Source: a virus
Lineage: Duplodnaviria; Heunggongvirae; Uroviricota; Caudoviricetes
Reading direction: 5' to 3' (one strand)
DNA: 49,107 bases
IMG/VR virus record: IMGVR_UViG_2563366861_000002
Of this stretch, positions 3,935 to 29,695 are shown in pieces. Numbering within the stretch: position 1 is the first letter of the stretch; each line of letters starts with the position of its first letter. The position numbers were made by a program, and so were the translations under genes. The notes beneath the pieces are model-generated. The model was not told the origin of the DNA. It searched no databases and worked only from the letters and a program-made list of their open reading frames with translations.

Positions 3935-4135
3935 TTAAAGACCTGCCGGGATTTCGTTATTATCCTGGTGAATAACTTTATCGACCGGGTAACAGTTACC
4001 GGGAATTTTCTGTTCGGTTGCTGCAGTCACACACTCCTGCATTGTCCTGTGAACACTGACTGCAATATCAACTGGCTCTCCGGAAACAAGAAAAACTGTC
4101 AGAACAAGTGCAAATGCTGTATTCATTGCCAGCAT
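3935..4135 (-). CDS. hypothetical small secreted protein (signal-peptide-like N-terminus)
   Basis: Internal start MLAMNTAFALVLTVFLVSG... of the 81-aa ORF; hydrophobic N-terminus; AT-rich region; no homology recognised. Confidence 0.3.
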   Translation of the reverse strand: MLAMNTAFALVLTVFLVSGEPVDIAVSVHRTMQECVTAATEQKIPGNCYPVDKVIHQDNNEIPAGL

Positions 4136-4416
4136 CCTTTTTGTATCGGACGTAAACGGGCCAGCATTGAAAGAATGCATATTTTATTTAATAGCTCCCG
4201 TTCGTGTTTTCTCTTGTTAATGGCATCTTCAGTAAATACAGGGTTACTGATATTGACACCAATTTCAAAACAACCTTCAGACGTATTAACGTTTGGTAAT
4301 AACGTTTCCATTATCGCGTCCTCAACAATGAATTTTGTGATGCGGTGCCTGGTGCCTCCAGGTGACGTTAACCAGTTAACAATTAACGCCGGATACAGAG
4401 AATCCACCCATAACAC
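4123..4416 (-). CDS. hypothetical protein
   Basis: 97-aa ORF in AT-rich early-left region; better RBS (GAGGA) precedes internal start METLLP (4311); function unknown. Confidence 0.3.
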   Translation of the reverse strand: MLWVDSLYPALIVNWLTSPGGTRHRITKFIVEDAIMETLLPNVNTSEGCFEIGVNISNPVFTEDAINKRKHERELLNKICILSMLARLRPIQKGCWQ

Positions 4417-4873
4417 TGTTTTTGGTTTTAACTGTTCCGCGTGCGCTCAGCCGCATTCACCACATCACAAAATTCACTTTAAAAAGGGCGGCAGAGCAGT
4501 CACGGAGTAAAACTGATACCGCCAAACGTCACCAGAAAATTGATAACAGAGGGCGTTGCAGCGGGGTTGTCACTTAAGCGTATGGTCAACCTGACAACCC
4601 GGTGTCCTCAACGGGGGAAGGAATAACCCCGCCATACTTACCGCCGCGCCATTTCGCGGATTGCCACAACCGGAAGCGCACGGTCGACGAAAATTTAACG
4701 ACAGGCTATCTATGAACCAGCTACCTCGCCGTGCGCTTTCGCGTTATGGTCTGACTTTTCAGGGAAATATCCTTTCAGTAAACTGTCAGTGCCGGATGCT
4801 CACCCGTGTCCGGCGCACGCACTCCACCTCACCCGTGGAGAACTCCTTAATCACCAACCCTCAGGAGGGTGAA

Positions 4874-6530: not shown

Positions 6531-6854
6531 ATGAAAAAAGATAACTATTCATTCAAACGAGCTTGTGCTGTTGTCGGTGGGCAATCAGCAATGGCTAGGC
6601 TTTTAGGTGTATCTCCTCCAAGCGTAAATCAATGGATCAAAGGTGTACGTCAGTTACCTGCTGAGAGATGTCCTGCGATTGAACGAGCAACAAAAGGTGG
6701 TGTCCTGTGTGAAGAACTTCGTCCTGATGTTGATTGGACATACTTACGACGCTCGTCATGTTATTCGCAGAATATGTCGATGAAGCAACCAAATGACGAA
6801 AACGATCATACCCGAAGCATCAAGAGGCAAATGATTCATGAAAATCAAACATGA
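6531..6854 (+). CDS. Cro/YdaS-like HTH protein
   Basis: ATG 6531 with GGAG RBS; HTH (QSAMARLLGVSPPSVNQWIKG); first gene of rightward operon, position of cro / Rac ydaS. Confidence 0.75.
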   Translation: MKKDNYSFKRACAVVGGQSAMARLLGVSPPSVNQWIKGVRQLPAERCPAIERATKGGVLCEELRPDVDWTYLRRSSCYSQNMSMKQPNDENDHTRSIKRQMIHENQT

Positions 6855-7263
6855 GCACATCCGCATGGCGATGAATGCCTGGGCATACCCTGATGGTGAG
6901 AAAGTTCCTGCAGCTGAAATAGCCCGGACTTATTTCGAACTGGGGATGACGTTCCCTGAACTGTACGACGACAGCCATCCGGAAGCCCTGGCCCGTAATA
7001 CCCAGAAAATTTTCCGTTGGCTGGATAAAGACACCCCTGATGCTGTTGAAAAAATGCAGGCTCTGTTACCGGCGATCGAAAAGGCGATGCCGCCTTTGCT
7101 GGTGGCCCGTATGCGCAGCCACAGTTCTGAATATTACCGTGAGATCGTCGAACGGAGGGATCGGCTGGTGAAGGATGTCGATGATTTTGTTGCGTCAGCG
7201 GTTGTTTTGTATGACCAGATGAATCGCGGCGGCCCGGCAGGGAATGCTGTGGTGATGCACTAA
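6838..7263 (+). CDS. YdaT-like protein (CII-position regulator / putative toxin)
   Basis: 141-aa ORF beginning MKIKHEHI..., matching my recollection of Rac YdaT; follows Cro-like gene. Confidence 0.7.
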   Translation: MKIKHEHIRMAMNAWAYPDGEKVPAAEIARTYFELGMTFPELYDDSHPEALARNTQKIFRWLDKDTPDAVEKMQALLPAIEKAMPPLLVARMRSHSSEYYREIVERRDRLVKDVDDFVASAVVLYDQMNRGGPAGNAVVMH

Positions 7264-16231: not shown

Positions 16232-16307
16232 GGCCCTTTAGCTCAGTGGTGAGAGCGAGCGACTCATAATCGCCAGGTCGCTGGTTCAAATCCAGCAAGG
16301 GCCACCA
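16232..16307 (+). tRNA. tRNA-Ile (anticodon CAT, ileX-like)
   Basis: 76-nt cloverleaf GGCCCTT...AAGGGCC-A-CCA; anticodon loop CTCATAA; near-identical to E. coli tRNA-Ile2 as I recall it. Confidence 0.85.
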
Positions 16308-16316
16308 TATCACATA

Positions 16317-16393
16317 CCACCATTAGCTCATCGGGATAGAGCGCCAGCCTTCGAAGCTGGTTGCGCGGGGTTCGAGTTCTCGATGGCGGTCCA
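16317..16393 (+). tRNA. tRNA-Arg (anticodon TCG), imperfect stems
   Basis: D-arm GCTC-ATCGGGATA-GAGC, anticodon stem CCAGC/GCTGG with loop CTTCGAA, T-loop TTCGAGT, 3' CCA; one acceptor mismatch and wobble-rich T-stem. Confidence 0.55.
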
Positions 16394-17676: not shown

Positions 17677-17936
17677 TTAGTTTCCTTGTTTATGCCTTGC
17701 TGGTGATGTTCTGAAAAGTATAAATGATATTTTTGATTGTAAACCATAGAGCAGAATTATTTTTCTGATGTTGTTTATTGTTTATTTAAATGCAGGGTGG
17801 TTTATATCTCGTCTTGTAGTTTATCCATGCATATCTGCTTGATGATGAGGTTTTTATTTAAGGTATGGTTTTGTGTTTTTTCTGTATTACATGTCAGGTA
17901 TTTTAAAGAATCATTTTTCAGATGGTGGAAAGAACC

Positions 17937-19793
17937 ATGGCATTTAAACACTATGATGTTGTCAGGGCGGCGTCGCCGTCAGATCTTGCGGAAAAGCTGA
18001 CACATAAACTGAAAGAGGGCTGGCAGCCGTTTGGTAGTCCGGTGGCCATAACCCCTTATACCCTGATGCAGGCGATTGCAGCAGAAGGTGATGTGGTCGT
18101 CAGTGGTGCAACTGAGCCGGAGTGGTACTACGTCATCGTACTGGCCGGGCAATCCAATGCCATGGCTTACGGTGAAGGGCTTCCGCTTCCGGATTCATAC
18201 GATGCGCCCCATCCGCGCATTAAGCAACTGGCCCGTCGTAACACAGTGACTCCCGGTGGTGAAGTATGCGTATTTAACGACATCATTCCTGCTGACCATT
18301 GTCTGCATGATGTTCAGGATATGAGTACGATTAATCATCCCCGGGCTGACCTGAGCAAAGGGCAGTACGGCTGTGTCGGACAGGGCTTACATATTGCCAA
18401 AAAACTGCTTCCGTATATCCCTAATAACGCGGGGATCCTGCTGGTACCATGCTGTCGTGGTGGTTCGGCATTCACCCAGGGCACGGAGGGGACATTCAGC
18501 GAGTCCACGGGGGCCAGTCAGGATTCGGCTCGCTGGGGAGTGGGTAAGCCGTTATATCAGGATCTGCTTTTCCGCACGAAGGCAGCATTGCAGAAAAATC
18601 CGAAAAACGTTTTGCTGGCGATATGCTGGATGCAGGGGGAATTCGATATGACGAATGCCAGTTACGCCCAGCAGCCAGCAGCATTTCTTGCAATGGTACA
18701 GCAGTTCCGTGCTGACCTTGCCGGGCTGGCGGCGCAGTGTCACGGTGGAAGTCCGGCATCAGTCCCCTGGATTTGTGGCGACACGACATACGCGTGGAAA
18801 CAAGAACACGGTACGCAATATGAAGTGGTATATGGTGCATATAAAGGTAAAGAATCCCAGCAGATTTATTTTGTTCCCTTTATGACCGATGGTAGCGGAG
18901 TTAATACACCGACAAACAACCCGTCAGAAGATCCTGATATTGCCGGGTCTGGTTATTACGGTTCGGCATCCCGAACGAACAAAAACTGGGTATCATCAAA
19001 TCGCCCGACGCATTTCAGCTCATGGGCGCGTCGTGGCATTATTCCCGATCGTATGGCAACTGCTATTCTGAACGTAGCCGGTCGCACCTTAGCCTTCATT
19101 AGTGGTAAGGCACCGGAAATCAAACCCTCGCCCGGCGGCGACACTCCATCGGGGCCGTCTGATGGTGACACATCCGTTCGTACAGTCTCCCTGCTGCCGA
19201 CAGCCGGAGAGGCTGCTGCGCAGGGCTGGACCATCACCGGCGGCAGTGTTGCGCTGGAAGATGGTGTGTTTAAGGTTACCAAGCAGAGCAATAAAACTTG
19301 GTCCCTGATGCATCCGGTGGATGACGCAGTCTCCCTGCTGACACGGGGTGGCAGACTGAGCTGTAAGTTTCGACTGTCAGGCGCACTGACCAACAACCAG
19401 TTCGGTCTGGGAATTTATCTGTATACCGATGTAGCGTTACCTGACGTCGTGGCGATGACCGGGACTGGTAACCCGTTCCTGATGTCGTTCTTCACCCAGA
19501 CCACAGACGGCAAACTGAATCTGATGCATCACAGGAAAGCAGGAAACACAAAGTTGGGCGAGTTCGGGAATTACAGTAACGACTGGCAGACGCTGGAGCT
19601 GGTGTTCACCGCCGGCAGTGCCACGGTTACTCCGAAACTGAATGGAGTGGCTGGCCCGGCATTCCAGGTCATAAAAGACAGTCTGACACTGGGGCTGAAT
19701 GCGCTGACGCTGACGGATATTACCAAAAATGCAGCGTATGGCGTTGAGATAGAAAGTCTGGTGCTGGAGATAAATGCACCAGCATCATCATAA
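17937..19793 (+). CDS. sialate O-acetylesterase-like protein (prophage NanS-p-type, SGNH/SASA fold)
   Basis: ~618 aa; GQSN motif (VLAGQSNAMAYGEG) of SGNH-type esterases; occupies the Q-tRNA-[stx]-esterase-lysis position known from Stx and related lambdoid prophages. Confidence 0.8.
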   Translation: MAFKHYDVVRAASPSDLAEKLTHKLKEGWQPFGSPVAITPYTLMQAIAAEGDVVVSGATEPEWYYVIVLAGQSNAMAYGEGLPLPDSYDAPHPRIKQLARRNTVTPGGEVCVFNDIIPADHCLHDVQDMSTINHPRADLSKGQYGCVGQGLHIAKKLLPYIPNNAGILLVPCCRGGSAFTQGTEGTFSESTGASQDSARWGVGKPLYQDLLFRTKAALQKNPKNVLLAICWMQGEFDMTNASYAQQPAAFLAMVQQFRADLAGLAAQCHGGSPASVPWICGDTTYAWKQEHGTQYEVVYGAYKGKESQQIYFVPFMTDGSGVNTPTNNPSEDPDIAGSGYYGSASRTNKNWVSSNRPTHFSSWARRGIIPDRMATAILNVAGRTLAFISGKAPEIKPSPGGDTPSGPSDGDTSVRTVSLLPTAGEAAAQGWTITGGSVALEDGVFKVTKQSNKTWSLMHPVDDAVSLLTRGGRLSCKFRLSGALTNNQFGLGIYLYTDVALPDVVAMTGTGNPFLMSFFTQTTDGKLNLMHHRKAGNTKLGEFGNYSNDWQTLELVFTAGSATVTPKLNGVAGPAFQVIKDSLTLGLNALTLTDITKNAAYGVEIESLVLEINAPASS

Positions 19794-20533: not shown

Positions 20534-21067
20534 ATGAGCGCAAAAATCAAATACGGCCTGTCAGCTGCTGTTCTGGCGCTGATTGCTGCAGGCGCGTCTG
20601 CTCCTCAAATACTTGACCAGTTTCTGGATGAAAAAGAGGGTAACCACACTACGGCATACCGCGATGGTTCCGGTATATGGACCATCTGTCGTGGTGCCAC
20701 AATGGTGGATGGTAAGCCCGTCATACCGGGAATGAAGCTGTCGAAGGAAAAATGCGACCAGGTTAACGCTATTGAACGTGATAAGGCGCTGGCATGGGTG
20801 GAGCGCAATATTAAAGTACCACTGACCGAACCACAGAAAGCGGGTATAGCGTCATTCTGTCCCTATAACATTGGCCCCGGTAAGTGTTTCCCGTCGACGT
20901 TTTATAAGCGGCTGAATGCCGGTGATCGTAAGGGCGCATGCGAGGCGATTCGCTGGTGGATAAAAGATGGTGGGCGCGATTGCCGCATACGTTCAAATAA
21001 CTGCTATGGACAGGTTATTCGTCGTGACCAGGAAAGCGCATTAGCCTGTTGGGGGATAGATCAGTGA
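20534..21067 (+). CDS. R: SAR-endolysin (lysozyme, phage 21 R21-like)
   Basis: 177 aa; N-terminal signal-anchor-release segment ([16 protein letters not shown]), T4-lysozyme-like core with E/D/T catalytic region ([20 protein letters not shown]). Confidence 0.9.
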
Positions 21068-21522
21068 GCAGAGTCGCAGCGATTATTTATACTCTGGTTA
21101 TCTGCACCATCGTCTGCCTGTCATGGGCTGTTAATCATTACCGCGATAACGCCATTACCTACAAAGCCCAGCGCGACAAAAATGCCAGAGAACTGAAGCT
21201 GGCGAACGTGGTAATTACTGACATGCAGATGCGTCAGCGTGATGTAGCAGATCTCGACGCCAGATACACAAAGGAGCTTGCTGATGCTAACGCGACTATC
21301 GAAAGTCTTCGTGCTGATGTTTCTGCTGGGCGTAAGCGCCTGCAAGTCGCCGCCACCTGTGCAAAGTCAACGACCGGAGCCAGCAGCATGGGCGATGGAG
21401 AAAGCCCAAGACTTACAGCAGATGCTGAACTCAATTATTACCGTCTCCGAAGTGGAATCGACAAGATAACCGCTCAGGTCAACTACCTGCAGGAGTACAT
21501 CAGGACGCAGTGCTTAAAATAA
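21064..21522 (+). CDS. Rz: i-spanin Rz
   Basis: N-terminal TM helix then coiled-coil-rich periplasmic domain; overlaps endolysin stop; contains embedded +1-frame Rz1. Confidence 0.75.
21278..21469 (+). CDS. Rz1: o-spanin Rz1 (lipoprotein embedded in Rz)
   Basis: Signal peptide with lipobox (LLGVSAC), Pro-rich mature part ([16 protein letters not shown]), fully within Rz in another frame. Confidence 0.65.
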
Positions 21523-21562
21523 TTTTAATTTCACTGAAATTTAATACGTGACTTTCAGGAAA

Positions 21563-21589
21563 ATGCCTCGCAGATGCGGGGCATTTTTG
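21563..21589 (+). terminator. rho-independent terminator after lysis cassette
   Basis: ATGCCTCGCA-ga-TGCGGGGCAT hairpin followed by TTTTT. Confidence 0.65.
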
Positions 21590-21938
21590 TACAGGTATTT
21601 CACCGCGCACCGCAGCGCACTCAACCACGTCGAACCAAACCCTTTGGAATGAGCCTTTGAGTAGTCAGTTAGTGCTGGTGAGCCTTGACGGGCTGATCTC
21701 CTATGCAGCAAAGGTTCATCTCAAAGTAAGACGAACGCTATGACAAACCAAGATTCTATAGACCTATCTGATCTTCGTGGAATGGTCAGTTTTCCAGACA
21801 AAAGGTAATCACCATAGTCGTATGGCTATGAATCTTGTTGCTGCAGATAAGCATTTTGTGATTGAAGTGGTCAAATCTCTCAAATGCAGTAAAATGCAGT
21901 GCGCTATAATTCAATAACGGAGGGAGTAAGGAGAAGTC

Positions 21939-22559
21939 ATGAAAGATCAAGATGTTAGGTTCGCGGTGCATCATAAGCTTTTGAAAGAATCGCATTTAGA
22001 TCCAGACTGCCTTGTGGTCGATGAATTTTCCATATCCCTTGGCGCCAGTAGAGCAGACATTGCTGTAATAAATGGTGTTATACACGGGTACGAGCTCAAA
22101 AGTGAATATGACTCTTTGGAGCGTTTGCCTCTTCAAATCAAGCATTATTCTTCTGTAATGGACAAGGTTACTCTTGTCGTAGCTGAGAAACACCTTGAGG
22201 GAGCATTAAAGTTAATCCCAGGTTGGTGGGGCGTTAAAACGGTTTCTGTTGGGCCAAAAGGCGCCATTCTTATAAAGCACATGCGTGGAGAAAAGCTTAA
22301 TCGAAACCATGACACATTGATGCTCGCTCAATTGCTTTGGAAAGATGAATGTATCGACGTACTTGAACGATGGGGCTATTCCAAAGGAATCAAAAGCAAG
22401 CCCCGATTTGAGTTATGGAATATTATTGCGGAAAATATTCCAATAGCGAATCTCAGGCCTGAAGTCAGAACAGCCTTAAAGAAACGCGTAGGCTGGAAAG
22501 TTAAGGCTTGGCAGGCTGAGTCTGCGCCAACCAATAAAGCTGTCTCACGACTAACGTAA
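21939..22559 (+). CDS. predicted PD-(D/E)xK-fold nuclease-like protein (uncharacterised accessory gene)
   Basis: 206-aa ORF, AT-rich; own -10 TATAAT (21905-21910) and AAGGAG RBS; motif VVDEF...RADIAVINGVIHGYELK fits D...D...ExK nuclease core. Confidence 0.7.
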   Translation: MKDQDVRFAVHHKLLKESHLDPDCLVVDEFSISLGASRADIAVINGVIHGYELKSEYDSLERLPLQIKHYSSVMDKVTLVVAEKHLEGALKLIPGWWGVKTVSVGPKGAILIKHMRGEKLNRNHDTLMLAQLLWKDECIDVLERWGYSKGIKSKPRFELWNIIAENIPIANLRPEVRTALKKRVGWKVKAWQAESAPTNKAVSRLT

Positions 22560-23568
22560 TATGGTGCGTATGTGCAACTTTACGCCATTCTTTAGAGCCG
22601 CCAGATTTGTTAGCGCCTAATGATCTTTGGTAAATGTAATCATCCCCCCAACTAAATTTGGAGCCAAAGACTTGATACTCTGGCGAACTAACAAGGGTAG
22701 TACATAAGTTTTTAGTTTGGCCCCATCCATTTCCTTTAACTGCGGTACCTTTTACAAAGATCCATGAGGTATCGTTCGAATATCTCACTGAGACATACTG
22801 AGACATGAAGCGTGGGTCTACGCTCGTAATGGTAGAGCTAGCGGTGGGATAATCACTAAAACTTGGCGTTCTTCCATTGCTAAAATTCTGTACTACGTAC
22901 ATCCAAAGATCGTATTCATGGCGCGGAATATGATGAACTTGATGTTGCGGTATCCCTGCCTGTGATGCCGGGTATGCGGTTGAAGATAAAATCAAGTTTC
23001 TCCACGGAGCTTGGCCTGATAATGTGTTGACCATGCTTAATGCTTGTTGTTTTAAACTATCAGTTGCGTTTTGAATATCTCCAAAATCAATGATTACATC
23101 AATTAAACTAGGATGAATATTTAAGTGGTTAACCAGACTTGTGAATTGGTGCCATGTCTGGGGGGTGATAGACATAGCGAGCCCATTGATTAAGTTGCGT
23201 TGAACAGCATGTATATAGTTTGTTGAATATGCGGGAGAAACAACAGGGATAATTTCCTTACCATTTACTCTAGCATCTTGGATACACATATCTAGAGGAT
23301 GATGGCGGCTCGAACCATGTTTATCTAAATATTTAACATCCAGCAAAACAGGACGATTGGCTTTCCAGGATGCCGCAAGGTTAATACCGAAGTCAGATAA
23401 GTAAGAACTCAAACTCTTCTTGTAGCATTCGTTTTCATAATCCCAGTCTATGTCTGGAATGGTAATGATCGGAGTAAAACCAGAGAGCGTAGTTTGATCT
23501 AAAAGCATCAGAGATTCATATTCAGCAGGCTTCCATTTCAGCTGTGGATAATATTGATGTTGACTCAT
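22501..23568 (-). CDS. uncharacterised 355-aa protein, convergent partner of the nuclease-like gene
   Basis: AT-rich ORF with AAGGAG RBS and promoter-like upstream region; 3' end overlaps 21939-22559 by 59 bp on opposite strand; no catalytic motif recognised by eye. Confidence 0.7.
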   Translation of the reverse strand: MSQHQYYPQLKWKPAEYESLMLLDQTTLSGFTPIITIPDIDWDYENECYKKSLSSYLSDFGINLAASWKANRPVLLDVKYLDKHGSSRHHPLDMCIQDARVNGKEIIPVVSPAYSTNYIHAVQRNLINGLAMSITPQTWHQFTSLVNHLNIHPSLIDVIIDFGDIQNATDSLKQQALSMVNTLSGQAPWRNLILSSTAYPASQAGIPQHQVHHIPRHEYDLWMYVVQNFSNGRTPSFSDYPTASSTITSVDPRFMSQYVSVRYSNDTSWIFVKGTAVKGNGWGQTKNLCTTLVSSPEYQVFGSKFSWGDDYIYQRSLGANKSGGSKEWRKVAHTHHITLVVRQLYWLAQTQPAKP

Positions 23569-23739
23569 TAAAACTCCTTAAAATCTTTACTTATCCTAAG
23601 TATAGTGTTATGGCGTAACGCCAATTGTTTTTATACACTTGAAAACATTGGGAAAAGTTGAGCTATATCTAAATTTACAAAATTGGATGTTATAGAAATC
23701 GAGGTTTCAACTAGGCATGGAACTGCAAAATTTTTAATG

Positions 23740-23972
23740 CCTGCACGCGAAAGTCGTTGGCGGGTCCTTTCCGGTGATCCAGATCGTTACGGGGCGGCGA
23801 CCTCGCGGGTTTTCGCTATTTATGAAAATTTTTAGGGAAAAATCAGATCCGTTCTTCTTCTTTTTAACTGATTGATTATCAATAGAATTTTAAAAATATA
23901 AAAGGATCTGACAAAGGCTGTTTTTGTTAGAAAACGCCATTTTCAGATCCTTTCTGGTTCCCGGGGGAGTGT
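23740..23972 (+). other. cos site (cosQ-cosN-cosB) for lambda-type DNA packaging
   Basis: GGGCGGCGACCT (23792-23803) is identical to lambda cohesive end; flanks (GTCGTTGGCGGGTCCTTTCCGGTGATCC ... CGCGGGTTTTCGCTATTTATGAAAATTTT) match lambda; directly upstream of Nu1. Confidence 0.8.
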
Positions 23973-24521
23973 ATGAACGTCAATAAGAAAAAACTGGCCG
24001 ATATTTTTGGCGTTGATGTCAGGACCATCACCGCCTGGCAGAGTCAGGGGTTACCACTAGTTTCTGGTGGAGGGAAAGGGACTGAATCAGTTTTTGATAC
24101 AACTGCTGCCATTCAGTGGTATGCGCAGAGGGAAGCTGATATTGAAAACGAAAAACTCCGTAAAGAGATCGAGGATTTGAGGGCTGCCAGCGAATCAGAC
24201 CTTCAGCCCGGCACCATTGATTACGAACGTTACCGACTGACGAAGGCACAGGCCGATGCACAGGAGCTGAAAAATGCTCGTGAGGAAGGCCTTGTCCTCG
24301 AGACGGAGTTATTTACCTACATCTTTCAGCGAGTGGCACAGAATATATCAGGGATCCTTGTCCGTGTCCCTCAGACACTGCAGCGTAAATACCCTGATAT
24401 ATCACCCGTACATCTTGATGCTGTGAAAACTGAAATCGCGAAAGCATCCGATGTGGCTTCTGAAGCCGGTGAGAATGTGCGCAGGTGGATTGATGATTTC
24501 AGACGAACTGAGGGCGGCTAA
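23973..24521 (+). CDS. nu1: terminase small subunit Nu1
   Basis: 182 aa; [19 protein letters not shown]...GGGKG closely matches lambda Nu1. Confidence 0.9.
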
Positions 24522-26421
24522 TTCTGCAGGAGCGATAGCAACCGGCCTCCTTGCGCTAAAAATTCCTGTCCCTCTGACGACAGTTCAGTGGGCAGATCGA
24601 CATTATTACCTTCCGAAAGAGTCATCTTACACCCCGGGGCGGTGGGAAACACTGCCGTTTCAGGTTGCCATCATGAACAGCATGGGGAATGACCGGATCC
24701 GCACTGTTAATCTGATTAAATCTGCCCGTGTTGGTTATACAAAGATGTTGCTGGGAGTGGAGGCTTATTTTATTGAGCATAAATCACGCAACAGCCTTCT
24801 TTTCCAGCCCACGGATTCTGCTGCTGAAGATTTTATGAAATCTCATGTGGAACCCACGATCAGGGATGTGCCGGTTTTACTCGATCTTGCACCGTGGTTT
24901 GGGCGTAAACATCGTGATAATACCCTCACGCTGAAACGTTTTTCATCGGGCGTGGGCTTCTGGTGCCTGGGCGGGGCTGCCGCTAAAAACTACCGTGAAA
25001 AATCCGTGGACGTGGTCTGCTATGACGAACTTTCCTCGTTCGAACCGGATGTCGAAAAAGAGGGTTCGCCAACCCTGCTTGGGGATAAACGTATTGAGGG
25101 CTCTGTATGGCCCAAATCCATTCGCGGCTCGACGCCTAAAATCAAAGGCACCTGCCAGATCGAAAAAGCGGCCAACGAGTCGGCGCATTTCATGCGTTTT
25201 TATGTGCCCTGCCCACACTGTGGGGAGGAGCAGTATCTGAAATTTGGCGATGAATCCACGCCTTTTGGCCTTAAATGGGAGAAGGACAGCCCCGAAAGCG
25301 TTTTCTACCTCTGTGAACATCATGGCTGCGTGATCCATCAGTCTGAGCTTGACCAGAGCAACGGGCGGTGGATCTGTGAAAACACGGGGATGTGGACCCG
25401 TGACGGTCTGACGTTTTTCAGCGCCGCGGATAATGAAATTCCGCCGCCGCGCTCCATCACGTTCCATATCTGGACGGCGTACAGTCCGTTCACCACCTGG
25501 GTACAGATAGTCTATGACTGGCTGGATGCACTGAAAGATCCCAACGGCCTGAAAACCTTTGTGAACACCACGCTGGGCGAGACCTGGGAAGAGGCCGTGG
25601 GCGAAAAACTCGATCACCAGGTACTGATGGATAAGGTCGTGCATTACACGGCGGCGGTGCCAGCCCGGGTGGTTTATCTGACGGCGGGCATTGACTCGCA
25701 GCGAAACCGTTTTGAGATGTATGTCTGGGGATGGGCACCGGGAGAGGAAGCTTTTCTGGTGGATAAAATCATCATTATGGGCCGTCCCGATGAGGAAGAG
25801 ACGCTGTTACGTGTGGATGCGGCGATCAACAAAAAATACTGCCATGCAGACGGAACCGAAATGACCATTTCCCGTGTCTGCTGGGACACCGGGGGGATCG
25901 ATGGTGAAATTGTCTATCAGAGGTCAAAAAAACACGGTGTTTTCCGGGTGCTGCCGGTAAAAGGCGCATCTGTCTATGGCAAGCCGGTGATCACCATGCC
26001 GAAAACCCGCAATCAGCGGGGCGTGTATCTGTGTGAAGTGGGGACGGACACCGCAAAAGAAATTCTCTATGCCCGTATGAAAGCCGATCCCACGTCTGCG
26101 GATGAAGCCACGTCGTATGCCATCCGTTTTCCTGATGATCCGGAGATTTTTTCGCAGACAGAGGCGCAGCAACTGGTCGCGGAAGAGCTTGTGGAGAAGT
26201 GGGAAAAAGGAAAGATGCGTCTGCTGTGGGATAACAAAAAGCGGCGTAACGAAGCGCTGGACTGCCTGGTGTATGCCTATGCGGCATTACGTGTGTCCGT
26301 GCAACGCTGGCAGCTTGATCTGGCTGTACTGGCAAAATCCCGGGAAGAAGAGACGACCCGGCCAACCCTTAAAGAACTGGCAGCGAAGCTGTCCGGAGGA
26401 GTGAATGGTTACAGTCGCTGA
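24493..26421 (+). CDS. A: terminase large subunit A
   Basis: ~642 aa; extensive identity to lambda gpA ([12 protein letters not shown]..., [10 protein letters not shown]..., [18 protein letters not shown]); overlaps nu1 3' end. Confidence 0.9.
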
Positions 26422-28200: not shown

Positions 28201-29695
28201 TCTTTCACACATTATTGCCGCAGCATTCAATGAACCGCTGCTTCTGGAGCCCGCCTATGCGCGGGTTTTCTTTTGCGCGCTCGGGCGCGAGATGGGGGCA
28301 GCAAGTCTTTCGGTACCACAACAGCAGGTACAGCTTGATGCTCCCGGAATGCTGGCTGAAACGGACGAGTACATGGCCGGAGGTAAACGACCGGCCCGTG
28401 TTTACCGGGTGGTGAACGGTATTGCGGTACTGCCGGTGAGCGGCACGCTGGTGCACCGGCTGGGGGGGATGCGGCCATTTTCCGGAATGACTGGCTATGA
28501 CGGCATTGTCGCCTGTCTTCAGCAGGCAATGGCAGATAGCCAGGTGCGGGGCATACTGCTGGACATTGACAGTCCGGGCGGGCAGGCCGCCGGCGCGTTT
28601 GACTGCGCTGACATGATTTACCGCCTCCGTCAGCAGAAGCCGGTCTGGGCACTGTGCAATGACACGGCCTGTTCTGCAGCCATGCTGCTGGCGTCGGCCT
28701 GCTCCCGACGGCTGGTTACCCAGACATCCCGTATCGGCTCCATTGGCGTGATGATGAGCCATGTCAGCTATGCCGGTCATCTGGCGCAGGCCGGTGTGGA
28801 TATCACGCTGATTTATGCCGGGGCGCACAAGGTGGATGGCAATCAGTTTGAAGCGTTGCCGGCAGAGGTTCGCCAGGATATGCAGCAGCGGATTGATGCG
28901 GCGCACCGGATGTTTGCCGAAAAAGTGGCGATGTATACCGGGTTGTCTGTGGATGCGGTCACGGGAACAGAGGCCGCCGTTTTTGAAGGTCAGTCCGGCA
29001 TTGAGGCCGGGCTGGCGGATGAATTAATCAATGCGTCGGATGCCATCAGTGTGATGGCCACGGCGCTGAACAGTAATGTCAGAGGAGGCACTATGCCGCA
29101 ATTAACTGCAACGGAAGCCGCCGTGCAGGAGAACCAGCGAGTGATGGGGATCCTGACATGCCAGGAAGCGAAAGGACGTGAACAGCTTGCCACGATGCTG
29201 GCAGGGCAACAGGGCATGAGCGTTGAACAGGCCCGGGCGATTCTGGCCGCGGCGGCACCGCAGCAGCCGGTGGCATCCGCGCAGAGTGAAGCCGATCGCA
29301 TTATGGCGTGTGAAGAAGCGAACGGTCGTGAACAACTGGCAGTAACGCTGGCGGCGATGCCGGAGATGACGGTGGAAAAAGCCCGCCCGATCCTGGCTGC
29401 TTCACCGCAGGCGAATGCCGGACCATCACTCCGTGATCAGATCATGGCCCTGGATGAGGCAAAAGGGGCTGAGGCGCAGGCTGAACAGCTGGCTGCCTGC
29501 CCGGGAATGACCGTGGAGAGCGCCCGGGCTGTGCTGGCTGCGGGATCAGGTAAGGCAGAACCGGTCTCTGCATCCACAACCGCCCTGTTTGAACATTTCA
29601 TGGCGAACCATTCACCGGCTGCGGTCCAGGGGGGCGTGTCACAGGCGTCAGAAGACGGTGATGCGGACGTGAAAATGCTCATGGCCATGCCATGA
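28190..29695 (+). CDS. C: head maturation protease C with C-terminal Nu3-like scaffold repeats
   Basis: 501 aa; ClpP/S49-like core (GIAVLPVSGTL...) as in lambda gpC; C-terminal three ~35-aa tandem repeats. Confidence 0.85.
   Translation: MRRNLSHIIAAAFNEPLLLEPAYARVFFCALGREMGAASLSVPQQQVQLDAPGMLAETDEYMAGGKRPARVYRVVNGIAVLPVSGTLVHRLGGMRPFSGMTGYDGIVACLQQAMADSQVRGILLDIDSPGGQAAGAFDCADMIYRLRQQKPVWALCNDTACSAAMLLASACSRRLVTQTSRIGSIGVMMSHVSYAGHLAQAGVDITLIYAGAHKVDGNQFEALPAEVRQDMQQRIDAAHRMFAEKVAMYTGLSVDAVTGTEAAVFEGQSGIEAGLADELINASDAISVMATALNSNVRGGTMPQLTATEAAVQENQRVMGILTCQEAKGREQLATMLAGQQGMSVEQARAILAAAAPQQPVASAQSEADRIMACEEANGREQLAVTLAAMPEMTVEKARPILAASPQANAGPSLRDQIMALDEAKGAEAQAEQLAACPGMTVESARAVLAAGSGKAEPVSASTTALFEHFMANHSPAAVQGGVSQASEDGDADVKMLMAMP

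Follow-up and report, generated by a model that had tools for sequence, protein, structure and literature searches.

A convergent gene pair between the lysis genes and cos

The DNA analysed here (the window) is the 49,107-nucleotide IMG/VR record IMGVR_UViG_2563366861_000002, a complete lambdoid prophage of Escherichia coli with the gene order integrase, early region, Q region, two tRNAs, esterase moron, lysis, cos, terminase, head and tail. Between the lysis gene Rz and cos lies a cassette of two convergent genes, one encoding a 206-amino acid (aa) relative of phage P4 cII (the sce7726 family) and the other a 355-aa protein of the beta family. This two-gene cassette is a distinct architecture related to known anti-phage systems, and it is much more widespread than the three-gene P4 form in the data fetched for this study. 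Its parts are as follows.

21853..21938, plus strand: upstream block of the cII-like gene, with TGGTCA-16-TAAAAT (21868-21895), a second TATAAT-like box and an AAGGAG ribosome-binding site
21939..22559, plus strand: cII-like (sce7726-family) gene, 206 aa
22501..22559: 59-bp 3' overlap of the convergent cII-like and beta genes, encoding the poorly conserved C-terminal tails of both proteins
22501..23568, minus strand: beta-family gene, 355 aa
23569..23700, minus strand: upstream block of beta, with TTTAGAT.TAGCTCAA.TTTT...TTTTCA...TATAAA and an AAGGAG ribosome-binding site; right edge of the mobile cassette

A first-pass annotation, made by reading the sequence without database searches, had described two convergent genes overlapping by 59 bp at their 3' ends, equipped with strong ribosome-binding sites and AT-rich against the phage backbone, and all of these points held. 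An AAGGAG Shine-Dalgarno sequence stands 6 nt ahead of the ATG in both genes. The GC content of 21853-23700 is 0.406, compared with a window mean of 0.514 (standard deviation 0.048 over same-length windows), which places the cassette within the lowest 0.2% of such windows; essentially no stretch of this length in the prophage has a lower GC content. GC content at third codon positions is 0.41 and 0.37 in the two cassette genes and 0.49-0.58 in R, Rz and terL.

The whole cassette was found at an identity of at least 98.8% in 126 of 5,426 complete E. coli genomes, and its genes are also annotated by RefSeq in E. coli 55989. There was no DNA-level match to it among cultured-phage records. In E. 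coli CUVET17-972 (NZ_CP115370.1; fetched locus L137, 2728-3956), an IS2 element is inserted about 160 bp 5' of beta, between the cassette and cos, and thereby separates the cassette from the packaging site while both genes stay intact. As the insertion falls outside both genes, it was rejected as a clue to a dispensable gene.

The 206-aa protein is a predicted PD-(D/E)xK nuclease

The 206-aa protein scored 184.1 bits on NCBIfam NF033832 (sce7726_fam), whose cutoff is 70, its residues 1-183 aligning with profile positions 1-182, and the family name that the first-pass annotation had suggested thus proved right. Matches were also obtained to the PADLOC model 'cll' (3.8e-31) and to phrog_984. The local copy of Pfam-A, apparently lacking PF26915, gave no family match; near-identical homologues carry a precomputed assignment to PF26915 (Phage_P4_cII). 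The database record of one homologue, P0063, is labelled 'DNA repair protein MmcB-like protein'.

The predicted structure is a confident PD-(D/E)xK fold with an alpha-beta-beta-beta-alpha-beta core. The nuclease core occupies approximately residues 1-116 and is followed by a C-terminal helical domain (approximately 120-190) and by a disordered tail of 15 residues that only this lineage has. The segments VVDEF, RADIAVI and HGYELK, formerly read as a D...D...ExK nuclease core, contribute E29, D40, E52 and K54. This tetrad is invariant in 57 homologues, being kept also in P4, actinophage, myxophage and Bacteroidetes members and in solo copies, and the model places the E...D...ExK residues on core strands 1-3. 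Both the fold and the catalytic residues therefore agree with the definition of the PD-(D/E)xK superfamily, and the protein is predicted from its model to be a metal-dependent nuclease with an intact catalytic tetrad. The closest solved structure is the uncharacterised SPO1766; at the sequence level no solved structure was linked, the profiles A1, A2 and A3 returning noise. The core fold and the E...D...ExK residues are shared with SPO1766, Can2, NucS and type II restriction enzymes, to which the window protein adds a helical C-terminal domain of its own.

The 355-aa protein is a beta-family TIM barrel

The 355-aa protein matched Pfam PF14350 (Beta_protein) with 190.3 bits against a cutoff of 27, over residues 6-342 and profile positions 1-342, and the RefSeq name of the identical protein is 'beta family protein'. 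The name sce7725, which had been proposed for it, was not borne out, as an NCBIfam scan (E<=1) gave no sce7725 match and returned only a spurious ndhI hit with E 0.11. Among the PADLOC models it matched PD-Lambda-2_C (4e-32, C-terminal half) and the P4-type 'beta' (3.3e-10), and it also matched phrog_9159. The family is large: an exhaustive profile search returned 3,757 clusters (50% identity) at E <= 0.001, of which 1,426 reached E <= 1e-30. The best 150 of these clusters are all stand-alone proteins of about 340-420 aa, save a few shorter and apparently partial ones.

The model is a very divergent triose-phosphate isomerase (TIM) barrel (predicted local distance difference test score 93.1, predicted template-modelling score 0.92). 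Across 56 diverse members including P4 beta, residues P33, D77, P108, D161, P200, D239 and H336 are invariant, and E16, R216, Y240, Y263, Q284, D309 and H335 are conserved at about 90%. In the model, D77, D161 and D239 lie at or near the ends of barrel strands, and the Asp-Asp-Asp-His constellation would appear to form the active site of an enzyme and not a surface for passive binding.

The convergent arrangement is conserved across phyla

The neighbourhoods of fetched loci were compared, with IMG/VR scanned from both the cII side and the beta side. The convergent cII-like/beta pair recurs in more than 100 of the fetched loci, nearly always with overlapping 3' ends. A convergent partner was present in 77 of 80 cII-side IMG/VR loci. 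From the beta side, using diverse beta queries, a convergent cII-like partner was present in 22 of 22, so that no beta without a cII-like neighbour occurred in the fetched loci. The range of the pair covers Proteobacteria, a Bacteroidetes metagenome-assembled genome and actinophages. In nine independent lineages the genes are convergent, and in eight of them they overlap by 11-59 bp, P4 being the exception.

E. coli / E. albertii: 59-bp overlap
Providencia, Pectobacterium, Pantoea, Klebsiella, Edwardsiella: 11-bp overlap
P4-like satellites of Enterobacteriaceae: 44-bp overlap
Acinetobacter: 41-bp overlap
Pasteurella: 53-bp overlap
Burkholderia: 56-bp overlap
Bacteroidetes metagenome-assembled genome: 29-bp overlap
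Rac-SA53: 41-bp overlap
P4: 27-bp gap

Because the overlap varies in length and the tails that it encodes are not conserved, the trait retained seems to be the absence of a spacer rather than a specific sequence.

Two loci deserve separate mention. Gordonia phage DumpsterDude contains an unannotated full-length cII-like open reading frame (MT024859.1, approximately 28621-29298; fetched locus L112, 3956-4633, plus strand; hidden Markov model E 3e-69), which overlaps the convergent beta-like gene 33 (E 5e-54) and in whose place GenBank has a small opposite-strand 'gene 32'. In the Rac-like IMG/VR locus L085, a rearrangement has divided beta in two, an N-terminal piece and a C-terminal piece in inverted orientation, while the cII-like gene is intact and identical to that of Rac-SA53 (features at 4056-4733, plus strand, and 6560-6919, minus strand).

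Genomic contexts of the pair

The pair occupies several kinds of accessory position. It lies between the lysis cassette and the terminase genes in the window, and also in a Klebsiella prophage whose HNH/Terminase_4 packaging module is unrelated; in phage DumpsterDude it follows the lysis genes. In Acinetobacter and Pasteurella prophages it stands directly 3' of a cI-like S24 repressor gene and on the same strand, which is the rexAB position. In Rac-SA53 it adjoins hok/mok in the nin region, and it is also carried by P4-like satellites. Outside prophages it adjoins a type II restriction-modification (R-M) system and a PDDEXK_4 protein (Providencia) or type I R-M genes (Pantoea and Edwardsiella islands), or lies near RHS toxins (Burkholderia). 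The use of different accessory slots and the absence of the pair from most relatives of each backbone point to cargo rather than a core phage function. A mobile defence module would be expected to be distributed in this way over prophages, satellites and R-M islands.

Relation to gop-beta-cII and PD-lambda-2

A first close relative is the P4 system gop-beta-cII (DefenseFinder 'Rst_gop_beta_cll'; PADLOC gop/beta/cll). The non-essential region of P4 holds gop (plus strand), beta (plus strand, 355 aa) and cII (minus strand, 264 aa), the latter two named 'beta family' and 'sce7726 family' in RefSeq, and these two are homologous to the window proteins (PF14350 and sce7726/PF26915, respectively). 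Beta is 355 aa long in both elements, beta and cII converge in both, both cassettes adjoin cos, and the cII tetrad and the beta Asp triad with its His are common to the P4 and window proteins. The two differ in that a 27-bp spacer, annotated as a terminator, separates beta and cII in P4 where the 3' ends overlap in the window, that P4 cII has 264 aa and the window protein 206, and that P4 is a satellite while the window is a lambdoid prophage.

A further difference is gop, which in P4 encodes a 133-aa protein immediately 5' of beta and which the window lacks. The best tblastn match of P4 Gop to the window had an E value of 0.19 and lay far from the cassette, and there is no minus-strand open reading frame of at least 20 aa between the beta start codon and cos. 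A hidden gop in the window was ruled out by this search together with a small-ORF (open reading frame) listing of both flanks. Across 111 fetched loci, P4 included, gop was found in P4 only, none of the 110 others carrying it.

P4 gop-beta-cII protects against lambda and P1 (PMC9122126), and anti-phage activity is known for this three-gene version only. According to older genetics as cited in that article, Gop is toxic without beta, and beta is reported as the antidote of Gop. Cell death by gop-beta-cII is triggered by orf184, a coliphage accessory gene of lambda-like phages (bioRxiv 10.1101/2023.04.06.535777).

In the second related system, PD-lambda-2 (Vassallo et al. 2022), the third component is a beta-family protein, and the window beta fits the PD-Lambda-2_C models better than the P4-type 'beta'. 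In PD-lambda-2, beta shares one operon with a toxic Xre-peptidase and a HigB-like protein, and the system has no described cII-like nuclease. Both of these partners, two of the three components, are absent at the window cassette, where the neighbours of beta are the cII-like gene and the cos/Nu1 region. PD-lambda-2C, the beta-like component, is indispensable for protection from lambda-vir and not for neutralising the toxic Xre-peptidase, and only PD-lambda-2B was toxic when over-expressed alone (PMC9519451).

Two lambda loci are positional analogues without homology to the pair, namely bor, which occupies the same Rz-cos slot, and rexAB, which corresponds in position to the Acinetobacter and Pasteurella pairs 3' of cI. 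Both are lysogen-expressed morons, bor encoding a serum-resistance lipoprotein and RexAB being a membrane-depolarising exclusion system.

Upstream blocks and transcription signals

In an upstream-region alignment, about 45 bp 5' of each gene were conserved in six lineages, and the flanks farther out could not be aligned; these promoter-like blocks thus accompany the genes when they move. The cII-side block, kept in the window and in the Providencia, Pectobacterium, Pantoea, Klebsiella and Edwardsiella loci, includes the scan-predicted TGGTCA-16-TAAAAT. The promoter scan gave no canonical -35/-10 pair in the beta upstream block, which we infer from its conservation to act as a promoter. The conserved edges at approximately 21853 and 23700 match the cassette limits drawn in the first-pass annotation.

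The 5' leader of beta contains the inverted repeat TGGCGTAACGCCA (23611-23623) with a T-rich run (to 23633, plus strand), which has a weak plus-strand terminator-like score. A terminator at TGGCGTAACGCCA, if functional, would stop cII and late-operon transcripts only after their antisense passage across the whole of beta. The repeat was also considered as a conserved operator and rejected, since it is not kept in relatives. The best sigma-70-like matches of the region (TTGTCA-16-TAAAAT, 10/12) lie at 23875-23914 on the minus strand, between cos and Nu1, and point leftward across cos toward beta. These predicted promoters could drive beta only with cos closed, as in the prophage or the circular form.

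Both in the window and in the Klebsiella prophage (fetched locus L028, 6058-6645), the cII-like gene lies directly 3' of Rz and points the same way as the lysis/late operon, to which beta is antisense. Hence, in the lytic growth of the prophage itself, Q-dependent late transcription would increase the nuclease mRNA and work against beta.

Interpretation of the cassette

On balance we favour, with modest confidence, the view that the cassette is a self-contained mobile beta-cII module of about 1.85 kb without gop, carried as a moron between Rz and cos, expressed in the lysogen and directed against other phages. This view is based on the homology of both proteins to parts of two validated systems, the predicted nuclease fold, the invariant sites, the constant pairing, the genomic contexts, the foreign base composition, the conserved upstream blocks and the variable insertion slot. 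Both genes would be expressed from their own promoters in the lysogen, which would be protected against superinfecting phages. The nuclease would stay latent until infection, when a phage-encoded factor might act through beta to license it, and the licensed nuclease would then cut phage DNA, host DNA or both, with exclusion or abortive infection as the outcome. Antisense pairing or transcriptional interference at the complementary 3' ends may link the expression of one gene to that of the other. The division of labour, that is, which protein senses and which kills, is the least certain step.

Several observations weigh against this defence reading. The demonstrated toxins of the validated relatives, P4 Gop and the PD-lambda-2 Xre-peptidase, are absent from the window, and defence by beta and cII alone therefore does not follow from those relatives. 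The proteins are distant from their P4 counterparts (beta 22% identity, BLASTP E 2e-7; cII 27% identity, BLASTP E 3e-19), and the searchable literature yielded no experiment on a gop-less beta-cII pair; nor did it yield a mechanistic study of gop-beta-cII. The first-pass annotation had supposed a nuclease effector with a sensor or regulator. The nuclease half is supported by the fold, whereas beta resembles an enzyme more than a classic sensor. It had also given both genes promoters of their own, for which the conserved blocks speak and the consensus scan for sigma-70 sites does not, its 5 sites being not above the 6.4 expected from shuffled sequence. The nuclease gene has the orientation of the Q-dependent late operon, so that lytic growth of the prophage itself may also yield the protein. 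Finally, an intact cII-like gene with its catalytic tetrad occurs without an intact beta in L072, in the rearranged L085 and in the myxophage Mx4. These solo genes fit a latent nuclease and equally a nuclease with an independent, non-defence role; since they persist intact, it is unlikely that the nuclease is a constitutive toxin requiring beta as its antidote.

The same solo genes bear on an unlikely but substantial alternative, in which the roles are reversed: beta would be a harmful TIM-barrel effector acting on a nucleotide, cofactor or nucleic acid, and the cII-like protein a DNA-binding regulator or antidote that uses its nuclease fold for binding or for a secondary function. By toxin-antitoxin logic, the partner never found alone (beta, 22/22) is the dangerous one and the partner sometimes found alone the safe one, and the enzyme-like invariant D77/D161/D239/H336 site of beta in 56 diverse members agrees with such a role. 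The name of P4 cII goes back to a clear-plaque phenotype, and this phenotype could stem from the killing of would-be lysogens upon loss of cII. However, the sample of solo loci is tiny, and the cII-like tetrad is invariant everywhere, solo copies included, which argues for real nuclease chemistry. Moreover, the older genetics cited for P4 report beta as the antidote of Gop and not as a toxin, and PD-lambda-2B is the only component of its system reported toxic alone. A function outside defence seems to us quite improbable, whether as an addiction module acting by post-segregational killing or as a pair for phage DNA metabolism or lysogeny control, for example with an MmcB-like repair nuclease. 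Toxin-antitoxin-like behaviour has been reported for relatives, the closest solved structure (SPO1766) is uncharacterised and the P0063 homologue is labelled MmcB-like, and in Mx4 and Bacillus jumbo phages solo cII-like genes form part of co-directional operons. Nevertheless, the pair is spread like cargo, turning up in different accessory slots of prophages that are unrelated to one another, of satellites and of R-M islands, and each of the two relatives examined by experiment behaved as an anti-phage system. We give still less credence to an R-M-like pair, in which beta would modify the resident DNA, for example by base exchange as in the TGT/DpdA TIM barrels, and the cII-like nuclease would cut unmodified incoming DNA.

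A broader form of the defence reading can be put forward tentatively and is rather doubtful at present. It holds that beta-cII is an ancient and self-sufficient two-component immune module spread across phyla and phages, to which Gop in P4 and HigB/Xre-peptidase in PD-lambda-2 would be effectors added in single lineages. Beta would be a new TIM-barrel enzyme that uses Asp-triad chemistry on a nucleotide or nucleic acid to sense or signal infection and controls a dedicated PD-(D/E)xK nuclease, and the obligatory absence of a spacer would provide antisense coupling of the two genes.

The data make a clear and testable case for beta-cII as the conserved core. The three-gene P4 system is rare. Should the two-gene core suffice for defence, a common prophage cargo would become recognisable as a defence system, one that, to our knowledge, current gop-dependent detection rules would miss. 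The reach would be considerable, given the exact variant in 126 of 5,426 complete E. coli genomes and a beta family of thousands of clusters. If true, the reading would also separate the core from the accessory parts of gop-beta-cII and PD-lambda-2, and would offer two tractable proteins, both modelled with confidence and with evident point mutants, for studying a TIM-barrel-plus-nuclease immune mechanism.

Insertion slot and host prophage

The genes flanking the cassette are as follows.

20534-21067: lysozyme R, left flank
21049-21522: Rz with embedded Rz1, left flank
approximately 23793-23804: lambda cosN sequence GGGCGGCGACCT, right flank
23973-24521: Nu1-like terS, right flank
24451-26421: terL (A-like terminase gene), right flank

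The position after Rz and before cos had been taken for a moron slot in which lambda carries bor, with the cargo of related lambdoid phages as a check, and the contents of the slot indeed differ among related phages.

Lambda: bor/ybcV/ybcW
PhiR42_1: csp/ynfN/gnsB/ybcV
PhiR5_1: empty
PhiR11_1: bor

The first 220 bp or so after Rz (21523-21743) share 87% identity with the Rz-rha junction found in P22 and BTP1-like Salmonella phages. To the left of the cassette the backbone is thus P22-like, to the right it is lambda-like in its cos and terminase genes, and a mosaic joint lies at the insertion site.

A further moron lies between the Q/tRNA region and the holin gene, the position occupied by stx and nanS-p in Stx phages. 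It encodes a 623-aa protein (17922-19793, plus strand) with DUF1737, SASA (sialate O-acetylesterase) and DUF6645 domains, and its product looks like a prophage esterase of the NanS-p type. Just 5' of it, as in Stx-type lambdoid phages, are the genes for tRNA-Met (CAT; 16232-16307, plus strand) and tRNA-Arg (TCG; 16317-16393, plus strand).

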